Shown here one piece after another: positions 26,994 to 27,771 of a stretch of 39,032 bases of DNA; position 1 is the stretch's first letter, and every line of letters begins with the position of its first letter. The position numbers and the translations under genes were made by a program. The notes beneath the pieces were generated by a model that saw nothing but the letters and a program-made list of their open reading frames with translations, did not search any database and was not told where the DNA came from. This stretch comes from a virus (lineage: Duplodnaviria; Heunggongvirae; Uroviricota; Caudoviricetes): positions 1 to 39,032 of the IMG/VR virus record IMGVR_UViG_649989948_000008; one strand, written 5' to 3'.

Positions 26994-27771
26994 AATTCAG
27001 CACTGCCAGTATTTATTACTCAACAGTGCCAATCGCGACGGTTTAGTTTCTGCCAGGAAACGCACCGCTACTTGCACTTTTCGTTAGTGCCAGACGCTTT
27101 CGACTTCGCTCAATAGTAGAAGGCAAAATCTTTAAGTAGATGATGTTTCTGAGGACAGCACCTACTTTGTAATTTATACAATGTGATGTATGGAATCATT
27201 TGTTGTGAAAACAGGCACCAATGGCAACAGTGGTTAAACCTACACAACAATCCCGTCTTCACAACGTTGAGGCCACTACTCCGATTGAATGTTTGCCCAA
27301 CATGTTACATATCAACGCTCGCCGGTATCTCTGTGAATAGAACCTTAGAATTGATAAAAATGTAATGGCCTCAACGTTGTGTGCTGGCTAACCATACCAG
27401 CCGGGCTACGTCGCCGCTTTTTAACCCAGTATAAACGACATAATTGAACAAAATGACGTAACAGGATGGGCGGTCAGTGGCTAAGAATCCGGGAGTCATA
27501 TGGAGTTGAAAATATACCAACCGCCCATTCTGTTACTTCATCGGAGGGAACATGAATGTTCCCTCCTGCGTTCTGCAATCACACTCGCTCAGTGTGTCCC
27601 ATTTCGGTAACGAGGCTGGAAACTGACCTCGCTGGTGTTTGGCTTATTAGGCTACTGCCAGATAGACTTCTTCGTTTGCACTTGTATTTAAGTTCAAACA
27701 GTCGCGTCTCAACGAAAACAAAGTCATCTTATACACAAAAGATAAGTAAGTAAATACTTATCAATATGTTT

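Follow-up and report, generated by a model that had tools for sequence, protein, structure and literature searches.

A perfect palindrome in an SSU5-like phage-plasmid as the probable closing hairpin of a tmRNA-like tag RNA

The window analysed here, a 39,032-nucleotide (nt) stretch of DNA, belongs to an SSU5-like phage-plasmid (99% identity to Escherichia phage Cyrano, 100% to E. coli plasmids of ~110 kb) and contains a perfect 24-bp palindrome at positions 27543-27566, within a stretch (26994-27771) between a tRNA-Asn gene (26919-26993, minus strand) and an open reading frame (ORF) of 96 amino acids (27772-28062, minus strand). Comparison of related elements indicates that this palindrome is almost certainly a hairpin of an RNA transcribed from the minus strand, and that the first ~190 nt of this RNA very probably constitute a tag module derived from transfer-messenger RNA (tmRNA), without the tRNA-like domain (TLD). 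Bacteria rescue stalled ribosomes mainly through the tmRNA-SmpB system, which is an antibiotic target and on which several phages are known to depend. The reading favoured here is that the phage RNA may well serve as a tmRNA-like coding piece that docks on the tmRNA of the host.

The palindrome as an RNA hairpin

The sequence GGAGGGAACAT-GA-ATGTTCCCTCC has perfect 11-nt arms around a 2-nt centre, in agreement, for both letters and coordinates, with a first-pass annotation of this DNA, which had considered it too long and too perfect to be due to chance. This judgment is borne out by the count of perfect inverted repeats in the window (arms of 11 nt or more, within 40 nt), which is seven, against a chance number of ~0.4 (our own estimate: 39,032 positions × 41 spacings × 4^-11), the palindrome being not the sole one. 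The surrounding stretch had been described as long, non-coding and devoid of any convincing ORF, and this holds for protein genes: none of the six ORFs of 34-65 amino acids between 27113 and 27750 has a match in PHROGs or Pfam, the insertions and deletions of relatives are not multiples of three, no conserved coding frame runs over the palindrome in relatives, and the stretch is without annotation in phage Cyrano, SSU5 and the RefSeq plasmids. A protein-coding reading was rejected, given the lack of matches for the six ORFs and the poor synonymous share of the AUG/GUG frame across the resume codon described below. On comparative evidence, the stretch is instead one that encodes a structured RNA on the minus strand, the strand that also carries the neighbouring genes and all four tRNAs. 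Two features of this RNA concern the palindrome directly:

27543-27566, minus strand: RNA hairpin (the palindrome), 5'-GGAGGGAACAU-UC-AUGUUCCCUCC-3', closing the 3' side of the tag module
27452-27542, minus strand: long helix abutting the hairpin, GAUGA-A-GUAACAGAAUGGGCGG with CCGCCCAUCCUGUUAC-G-UCAUU, with a variable interior

Local folding predicts a hairpin of 10 bp with a UUCA loop (-22 kcal/mol). When the window is aligned with SSU5 and Klebsiella pJN2-26, each has arms of its own sequence that are still complementary: GGAGGGAACAU/AUGUUCCCUCC in the window, GGAUAGGGCAUG/CAUGCCCUAUUC in SSU5 and GGUAGGGCA/UGCCCU-U-ACC in pJN2-26. Among 24 distinct relatives, 89% of the cells of the 12-pair stem are paired and 8 of the 12 pairs have changed on both sides, in an alignment in which one subgroup is misaligned by a 1-nt bulge; the adjacent helix (21 pairs, many of them G·U) is 97% paired. 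Taken together, the two helices are 94% paired, as opposed to 34-49% when the partner columns are slid by 1-3 positions, and their covariation score was reached by none of 500 shuffles. In a set of 49 unique sequences, the stem is 98% paired, with five compensatory pairs, and the adjacent helix, of 24 bp there, is 100% paired, with three. The G·U pairs of the stem, abundant also in the adjacent helix, are standard pairs in the minus-strand RNA only; in DNA or on the opposite strand they turn into A·C mismatches. The loop, of 2 nt in the window, extends to 10-21 nt in relatives; in other phage types, the homologous stem has one of up to ~100 nt. Since pairing in the stem persists through compensatory and G·U substitutions valid only on the minus strand, while the loop varies, the RNA hairpin is retained of the two possibilities that the first-pass annotation had left side by side, and the protein recognition site, for which arm conservation and recurrence are missing, is not; the strand and the tmRNA-like module upstream had both been overlooked. 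The adjacent helix begins at the very next base (27542), so the two would probably stack. The tag module lies immediately upstream on the minus strand and provides the context that accounts for the hairpin, which is regarded as a helix of the tag RNA.

A stable stem with a related base sequence directly follows the second pseudoknot of the module (pseudoknot B, see below) in nearly every lineage inspected, with Aeromonas phage phiA050 as the exception. It takes the following forms:

Window: …AACGCAGG-A-GGGAACAU[UC]AUGUUCCC-U-CCG…
Lambdoid, T1-like and P1: …ACAACAGG-U-AAGAGCAUU[60-100 nt]AGUGCUCUU-U-CCG…
Serratia phage 3M: …AACUGAGAAGGUUAU[…]AUAAUCUUCUCAGUU…
Felix O1 type: closing stem that ends 2-4 nt ahead of the next tRNA

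The hairpin corresponds by positional homology to the CAGG-U-AAGAGCA…UGCUCUU-U-CCG stems in other types of phage, and the palindrome appears to be the minimal-loop form of the closing stem in the E. coli lineage, its perfection resulting from a lost interior rather than from any special sequence; only its pairing would be under selection. Such a stem might protect the 3' end, provide a signal for RNase processing or act as a structural clamp of the module. Two observations concern its natural variation. The centre (27554-27555) occurs as UC or as GA, in the RNA sense, in near-identical E. coli-type elements (IMG/VR loci L001, L045, L048 and L068), as expected if a DNA hairpin or cruciform were occasionally flipped by template switching. 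In another relative (L114), a deletion between two AACA repeats (…CAGGAGGGAACAGAATGGGCGG…) in the region homologous to 27530-27556 has cost the hairpin its 3' arm and the next helix its 5' strand, making this a natural stem mutant.

Two other explanations concern the palindrome itself. A DNA-level element (a palindromic protein-binding site, a cruciform or a recombination hotspot) would fit a perfect palindrome and the occurrence of both TC and GA centres among close relatives, as for a flipping DNA hairpin, but it is very improbable in the face of arms in which pairing is kept and sequence is not, G·U pairs that mean mismatches in DNA, a loop of 2-21 nt and the presence of the exact motif only once in 39 kb, no second copy having been found in the window, even with three mismatches allowed, when the recurrence proposed as a check by the first-pass annotation was looked for. 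An intrinsic terminator ending the tag RNA would account for a stable, G+C-containing stem just after the module; it is scarcely credible, however, given that the stem is followed by GAUGAAGUAAC rather than by a U tract, is absent from a terminator scan of both strands, and gives way at the very next base to a helix with which the conserved structured RNA continues.

A tmRNA-like tag module upstream of the hairpin

The features upstream of the hairpin, listed in the direction of transcription, are as follows:

27726-27754, minus strand: candidate sigma-70 promoter, TTTACT-17 nt-TAAGAT, 8/12, read from the sequence
27695-27719, minus strand: 5' arm, antisense to E. coli ssrA, with blocks GUUUUCGU (27719-27712) and GCGACUGUUUG (27705-27695)
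27644-27689, minus strand: resume context AAAUACAAGU, tag frame and second in-frame stop; tail of ORF 27647-27736
27632-27661, minus strand: helix around the stop codons, CUGG (27661-27658) with CCAG (27635-27632), analogue of tmRNA helix 5
27597-27631, minus strand: pseudoknot A, stem 1 CGAGG (27631-27627) with CCUCG (27615-27611), loop UUCCA (27621-27617) with UGGGA (27601-27597)
27574-27596, minus strand: pseudoknot B stem 1, CACACU (27596-27591) with AGUGUG (27585-27580), then conserved GAUUGCAGAACGCAGG

The promoter falls below the threshold of the promoter scanner in the window. Promoters called by the scanner occupy the same position in Michonne (TTGACA-17-TAAGAT) and in AB4P2 (TTGACA-17-TAGATT), and those of Panisse and the window were read from the sequence. 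In these four contexts, the promoter sets a predicted 5' end 5-8 nt ahead of GUUUUCG, a distance at which the seed of a small RNA (sRNA) is usually located; in the window, this predicted end falls at ~27719-27721. The element is compact enough in Michonne to fit, promoter included, into the 248 nt between tRNA-Ile and tRNA-Arg.

The tag frame (27679-27644, minus strand) reads GCA AAC GAA GAA GTC TAT CTG GCA GTA GCC TAA TAA, that is ANEEVYLAVA, and closely recalls the tag template of E. coli ssrA (GCAAACGACGAAAACTACGCTTTAGCAGCTTAATAA, ANDENYALAA). The frame proper, with the first stop included, occupies 27679-27647, ~80 nt upstream of the hairpin. It consists of 10 codons and a stop in all 26 distinct nucleotide versions obtained from a tag scan of IMG/VR and from blastn relatives, and 30% of the codon differences are synonymous, against 3.7% and 10.4% in the other frames; the frame evolves as a translated one does. 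The tag-pattern scan of IMG/VR identified at least 119 loci, and five further tags, in which this design is preserved, were found independently of the pattern:

'Acinetobacter' phage AB4P2: ANDDVVLMAA
Aeromonas phage phiA050: ANDSEMRVAA
Erwinia phage Panisse: ANDAQFLAVA, with synonymous codons AAT, GTG and GCG
Serratia phage 3M: ANDNAFLMAA
P1-like plasmid: ANDDLMMVAA

The reading frame on tmRNA is set by upstream sequence (PMC2481249), and the A at -4 of the resume codon is conserved in the alignment of the modules.

The structures that follow the tag are also maintained. The helix enclosing the last codons and the stop is 95.5% paired (variants CUGA/UCAG and GCGAG/UUCGC); in pseudoknot A, 7 of 9 pairs have changed on both sides (GAGG/CCUC, with loop variants CCGA/UCGG, CCAG/CUGG and CCAA/UUGG); and stem 1 of pseudoknot B is 100% paired, with changes on both sides in all 4 of its 4 pairs (CAC/GUG, CAU/AUG, UAC/GUA and CAG/CUG). 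Stem 2 of pseudoknot B is clear in other phage types (GCCC/GGGC) and weak in the window (GCG/CGC). Over 22 diverse modules, the 17 pairs of the stop helix and pseudoknots are 93% paired, with 13 changed on both sides; none of 500 shuffles was as good, and slid partners gave 39-50% pairing. Rfam models of tmRNA align precisely on the resume-codon context and the stop, providing the only Rfam signals in the region, all of them sub-threshold. Known RNA families were rejected as an explanation, the search at permissive E values having returned these sub-threshold tmRNA matches only.

Absence of a tRNA-like domain

The RNA resembles the mRNA-like half of a tmRNA and fails the test that defines a tmRNA, the presence of a tRNA-like domain. 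ARAGORN found four tRNAs and no tmRNA in the window, and no tmRNA in Cyrano, SSU5, pJN2-26, Michonne, HK620 or Carvaje. Its 'tmRNA*' calls in 2 of 129 contexts, both in Moogle-like phages, are 749 nt long and extend across three real tRNA genes; in Citrobacter phage Moogle (locus L007, 2424-3172), the call spans tRNA-Lys, tRNA-Met and tRNA-Ile, and its tag part alone is credible. Genome announcements mention 'ssrA' for Moogle and Felix O1 (PMC4319497, PMC4392139), statements that probably stem from this 749-nt call. Permuted-tmRNA calls obtained with ARAGORN relaxed to 80% were rejected, since they take the promoter region as a 5' tRNA domain together with a GCUGG…CCAGC hairpin and occur in one subgroup only. 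The Rfam scores are all far below the gathering thresholds (GA): 14.9-27.3 bits for RF04321 (GA 47), 14-18 for RF01850 (GA 84) and 11 for RF00023 (GA 47). No T-arm or CCA end is present upstream of the arm in the window, Michonne or AB4P2, where a called or candidate promoter lies directly upstream, and inspection by eye of units and stems revealed no acceptor stem with G3·U70. A tRNA gene on the same strand is located no more than 1.5 kb downstream in 78 of 129 modules.

In lambdoid, T1-like and P1-like elements, the modules sit in arrays of long hairpin units, CACAACAGGUAAGAGCAUU[60-100 nt variable]AGUGCUCUUUCCGUUGUGG, for example in HK620 (L005, 2300-2900), Carvaje (L006, 2330-2720), a P1-like element (L144, 1660-1760) and many IMG/VR loci. 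A T-arm-like hairpin, GGGUUCGAAUCCC, is found in the interior of some units, and in some the end, directly ahead of the module, is UCCA.

The 5' arm and its complementarity to host tmRNA

The ~40-60 nt ahead of the resume codon have no homology to the 5' part of tmRNA and are antisense to ssrA. The arm of the window, GTTTTCGTTGAGACGCGACTGTTT, aligns to antisense ssrA nt 104-82, covering the resume codon and codons 1-5; its second block, which follows GUUUUCGU, carries GCGACU. Lambdoid-type arms are complementary to ssrA nt 68-106 (the 3' strand of pseudoknot 1, the resume codon and codons 1-5), and in one of them (IMG/VR locus L061), AGTTTTCGTCACGTTAGCGACTTTGCGGGCTTTTTA matches antisense ssrA, AGTTTTCGT--CGTTTGCGACTATTTTTTGC-GGCTTTTTA, at 33 of 36 aligned positions. 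For short arms, energies from RNAduplex have no discriminating power, and alignment statistics were used for the arm-ssrA test: the arms of all 12 module types map to ssrA nt 68-111 with z values of 2.0-7.7, for six of the 12 types none of 500 shuffles was as good, and scores of 11-20 against antisense host ssrA compare with 5-10 against the antisense of the module's own tag and 6-9 against sense ssrA.

Among 127 modules chosen by tag pattern alone, GTTTTCG is present in 124 (the remaining three have ATTTTCG) and GCG[AGT]CT in 125, with a spacer of 1-15 nt between the blocks. The blocks are kept while the modules' own codons 3-5 vary freely, which places the blocks under selection, though not for pairing with the module's own tag. 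Variants of the second block are, by our own reading, wobble-compatible with the host (GCGGCU, GCGAUU and the G in GCGACUGUUU). Overall, the chances that the arm pairs functionally with host tmRNA look about even.

Possible tracking of the host sequence by the arm was looked for in several lineages, using ssrA sequences of Aeromonas, Yersinia, Acinetobacter and Klebsiella taken from chromosomes mislabelled as plasmids. Around the resume codon, from -11 to +20, no difference separates the ssrA genes of Aeromonas, Klebsiella and E. coli, and the recovered sequences provide no decisive contrast. A single scan of genome contigs for ssrA with a base other than U at -2 yielded none from Erwinia amylovora. 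The arm of Erwinia phage Panisse (L130, 566-600) has GCUUCU in place of GCGACU, and the ssrA of Ca. Erwinia haradaeae (L141), the sole readable ssrA of the Erwinia lineage, has GAU for GUC at -3 to -1, such that a U of the Panisse arm pairs with the A at -2; this hints that the Panisse arm tracks host ssrA. The AB4P2 arm (L128, 555-860) scores 16 against E. coli and Klebsiella ssrA and 11 against that of A. baumannii, and its module is 77% identical to enterobacterial ones. The stated host of this 'Acinetobacter phage' (vB_AbaM_AB4P2) may be wrong, or the phage may have been recently transferred.

Distribution and prior knowledge

The module is present in 776 phage records (P1-like, SSU5-like, Felix O1-like, Vi1-like, T1-like and lambdoid), which include Felixounavirus/Mooglevirus, Ackermannviridae, T1-like, lambdoid HK620/HK633, N4-like, Erwinia, Serratia and Aeromonas phages. 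The 778-nt intergenic region of the window is matched by 773 plasmids, among them SSU5-like plasmids from Salmonella, Klebsiella, Enterobacter and Cronobacter and Y. pestis pMT1. The module is also found in 689 of 5426 complete E. coli genomes (12.7%), mostly on P1-like and SSU5-like plasmids, and lambdoid prophages carry it between Q and the holin gene. Among the records listed, it carries no RNA annotation, the match falling under 'none' or under a hypothetical-protein coding sequence. Papers on tmRNA databases describe complete phage tmRNAs and a TLD-only form (DS6A) and no tag-only form (PMC4131195, PMC11915505). Full-text searches, which covered few subscription journals, returned no literature on a phage RNA antisense to tmRNA, none linking tmRNA to SSU5, pHCM2, pMT1 or P1, and none containing the five tag strings. 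The prophage sRNA svsR was considered as a prior description and rejected, being a different locus. As far as can be told, the tag-only RNA is an undescribed and very widespread variant of tmRNA.

Proposed mechanism and alternatives

In the absence of a tRNA-like domain, a tag template would serve no purpose, and the complementarity of the arm to host tmRNA is the only conserved feature that could supply one; docking on host tmRNA is proposed for this reason. In the model, the minus-strand RNA would start at ~27720 and run toward tRNA-Asn, its module comprising, in order, the antisense 5' arm, the resume context with the 10-codon tag, the stop helix with the two pseudoknots, and the palindrome as a terminal stem. 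The arm would pair with host tmRNA and mask the host tag template, and this pairing would tether the phage template to the alanine-charged tRNA-like domain and SmpB of the host. Rescued ribosomes in infected or lysogenic cells might then add a tag specified by the phage (…YLAVA, …LMAA or …MVAA, as opposed to …YALAA). The C-terminus of the phage tag in the window, …LAVA, differs from the ClpXP degron …ALAA. That docking occurs may well be the case, and at the least it is proposed to block the host template, as a sponge would; the full exchange, in which the phage template replaces the host tag in trans-translation, is a tentative and rather doubtful extension.

Several points weigh against this model. 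Acceptance by the ribosome of a template tethered solely by such a duplex is an assumption, and the hairpin is of 11 bp only, followed in this lineage by a further 550 nt of structured RNA. The short arm of the SSU5 type gives RNAduplex z values of -0.1 to -0.6, with shuffles reaching similar energies, and an alignment z of 2.0, with 33 of 500 shuffles as good. Pairing in cis is also seen: the 3' block of the lambdoid arm pairs as CUUUGCGG/CCACAAAG, compensated in Serratia phage 3M as UUAUGCGG/CCACAUAA, and RNAalifold predicts for SSU5-type RNAs a cis helix UGUUUG/CAAACG over the module's resume codon, an invariant helix in which no covariation is possible. The arm could be partly a relic of an inverted duplication of ssrA, an event that would explain the layout but not the selective retention of blocks matching the host. 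Finally, a scan for Yersinia-adapted arms matched genuine ssrA only, and the arm of Y. pestis pMT1, which we take to be a recent acquisition, does not match Yersinia ssrA; the module copy of pMT1 is truncated. With regard to that copy (L150, 340-810), it is cut after ~510 nt by caf1R and the F1 capsule operon, with loss of tRNA-Asn; the Yersinia ssrA tag (Y. pseudotuberculosis, L147) is ANDSQYESAALAA, with a template region to which the arm shows no complementarity.

Three other explanations of the tag RNA have to be set against docking. Natural two-piece tmRNAs hold their coding piece non-covalently, and the module could likewise be the coding piece of a two-piece tmRNA, with its acceptor piece (the tRNA-like unit of an array, or part of the 550-nt extension) elsewhere in the phage and the arm serving in cis or in assembly. 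The tmRNA_permuted model of Rfam is the best match, though a sub-threshold one (15-27 bits), lambdoid array units with GGGUUCGAAUCCC hairpins and then UCCA adjoin the module, and tRNA genes frequently follow on the same strand, as counted above. This is nevertheless unlikely, in that neither the window nor the 248 nt of Michonne between two tRNAs holds a tRNA-like domain, the relaxed ARAGORN calls borrow the promoter region and concern one subgroup, loci of HK620 and of the Felix O1 and SSU5 types have no T-arm-like units, and the units inspected lack a G3·U70 acceptor stem. The RNA could, alternatively, be a pure antisense inhibitor or sponge of host tmRNA, with an untranslated tag-like frame kept for RNA-level mimicry (binding of SmpB, S1 or RNase R), as suggested by the complementarity and conservation of the arm and by the precedent of the TLD-only RNA of mycobacteriophage DS6A, which inhibits tmRNA when expressed in E. 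coli (PMC4131195, PMC11915505). We consider this fairly unlikely, as a frame that shows coding-type substitutions and that in all lineages runs for exactly 10 codons, closes with one stop or, often, two, and specifies a C-terminus like that of tmRNA tags is hard to account for without translation. It is improbable that the hairpin and RNA are only a structured leader of a tRNA operon, in which the tmRNA-like part is a decaying, functionless fragment of captured ssrA. The constant position upstream of tRNA-Asn in SSU5-type elements, the proximity to tRNAs in many phages and an arm-plus-tag layout that could come from an inverted duplication would agree with such a leader; retention in 776 records of unrelated phage families and 689 E. 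coli genomes, with invariant blocks, covarying helices and an intact tag frame, would not, nor would the many copies away from tRNAs, such as those between Q and the holin gene.

If docking on host tmRNA is correct, what becomes of proteins released by stalled ribosomes may be routinely re-programmed or blocked by phages and phage-plasmids, and the carriers include P1-like and SSU5/pHCM2/pMT1-like plasmids of clinical Enterobacteria. The module would provide a natural test of the supply of a tmRNA template in trans. The conserved 'empty' region upstream of phage tRNA genes would thereby be explained, 'ssrA' annotations based on ARAGORN in Felix O1-like phages would be corrected, and an isolated palindrome would become a defined helix of a definable RNA family.

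The 3' extension and other features of the window

Between the hairpin and tRNA-Asn, ~550 nt contain conserved helices with G·U and compensatory changes. The following elements were located, the helices of the extension by RNAalifold and pair counts on 49 unique sequences and the tRNA by ARAGORN:

27000-27443, minus strand: SSU5-type 3' extension
27443-27434 with 27415-27406, minus strand: extension helix
27401-27383, minus strand: extension hairpin
27381-27363 with 27278-27260, minus strand: long-range 18-bp helix
27090-27074, minus strand: extension hairpin
27029-27000, minus strand: last extension hairpin
26919-26993, minus strand: tRNA-Asn, first gene of the tRNA cluster Asn, Tyr, Thr, Ser

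No homologue of the 550-nt extension was found in other phage types or in ssrA beyond chance matches of 9-11 nt, and no large RNA of Rfam (GOLLD, ROOL or others) was matched at E<=1 over 25500-29000 or at E<=10 over 26950-27800. The RNA region is probably the leader of the phage tRNA operon, because tRNA-Asn follows on the same strand in all 55 of 55 SSU5-type loci. Within the tRNA cluster, tRNA-Ser(UGA) (26443-26529, minus strand) has tRNA-Sec as its best Rfam match (44.6 bits, just below the gathering threshold of 47), probably as an effect of its long variable arm only.

Six more perfect inverted repeats (arms 11-15 nt long, spacers 3-7 nt) occur in the window, at 24691-24724, 24729-24753, 21137-21164, 35746-35776, 18506-18532 and 12348-12373. 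The first two are adjacent to one another, just downstream of another palindrome (24169-24201) made by two copies of a 15-mer, AATGATTCCATACAT. This 15-mer has five copies in the window, four of them exact (0.18 expected by chance):

18139-18153, plus strand: AATGATTCCATACAT copy
24169-24183, plus strand: AATGATTCCATACAT copy
24187-24201, minus strand: AATGATTCCATACAT copy
27186-27200, minus strand: AATGATTCCATACAT copy
28198-28212, minus strand: AATGATTCCATACAT copy

A real gene start with a Shine-Dalgarno sequence (MIPYIS…) is present only at the copy at 28198-28212, and the copy at 27186-27200 lies within the 3' extension of the RNA, with 14 of 15 positions invariant in SSU5 and pJN2-26. 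The 15-mer may be a candidate binding site for a regulator.

Comparison with known systems

The one-piece enterobacterial tmRNA (SsrA; RF00023, clan CL00001) shares with the phage RNA a resume codon GCA AAC GA… with A-rich sequence ahead of it and an A at -4, a 10-codon tag of the ANDENYALAA type with a hydrophobic/alanine end, one or often two stops inside a helix 5 analogue, and pseudoknots after the tag, of which E. coli tmRNA has three and the phage module two. The phage RNA differs in having no acceptor stem, T-arm or CCA end, in a 5' sequence of ~40 nt that is antisense rather than sense to ssrA, and in its detection, with 11-27 bits against gathering thresholds of 47-84 and nothing from ARAGORN at default settings save the 749-nt miscall in Moogle-like phages. 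In two-piece tmRNAs (alpha-proteobacteria, some beta-proteobacteria and cyanobacteria; RF01850, RF04321), a template piece is base-paired to an alanine-accepting piece, as is proposed here for the module and host tmRNA. The two pieces of known forms come from one gene and pair via elements of the TLD and helix 2, whereas the phage module has no adjoining acceptor piece and a promoter directly upstream, its proposed partner being a complete host tmRNA contacted through the tag region. A unit resembling a two-piece acceptor (T-arm-like, with UCCA) is present upstream of the module in some lambdoid arrays and is not general.

Derivatives of tmRNA encoded by phages are known in the form of the TLD-only tmRNA of mycobacteriophage DS6A and of the complete tmRNAs of cluster C mycobacteriophages and Bacillus phage G, and the DS6A form demonstrates that a partial tmRNA can interfere with the host system (PMC4131195, PMC11915505). 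DS6A keeps the tRNA-like domain without the tag, and the phage module is its mirror image, with the tag and pseudoknots and without the tRNA-like domain. The GOLLD and ROOL RNAs are comparable in that an RNA region of ~720 nt (from the predicted start at ~27720 to tRNA-Asn) with several covarying helices lies immediately upstream of phage tRNA genes; the phage RNA differs from them in having no Rfam match and a 3' extension confined to SSU5-type phage-plasmids. Lambdoid prophages encode trans-acting antisense RNAs, or 'anti-sRNAs', such as AgvB and AsxR. Like these, the module has a short conserved region near its 5' end that is complementary to a host RNA, and a non-coding location in phage DNA; it is set apart from them by its proposed target, which is tmRNA itself, and by the possession of a translatable tag template and pseudoknots.

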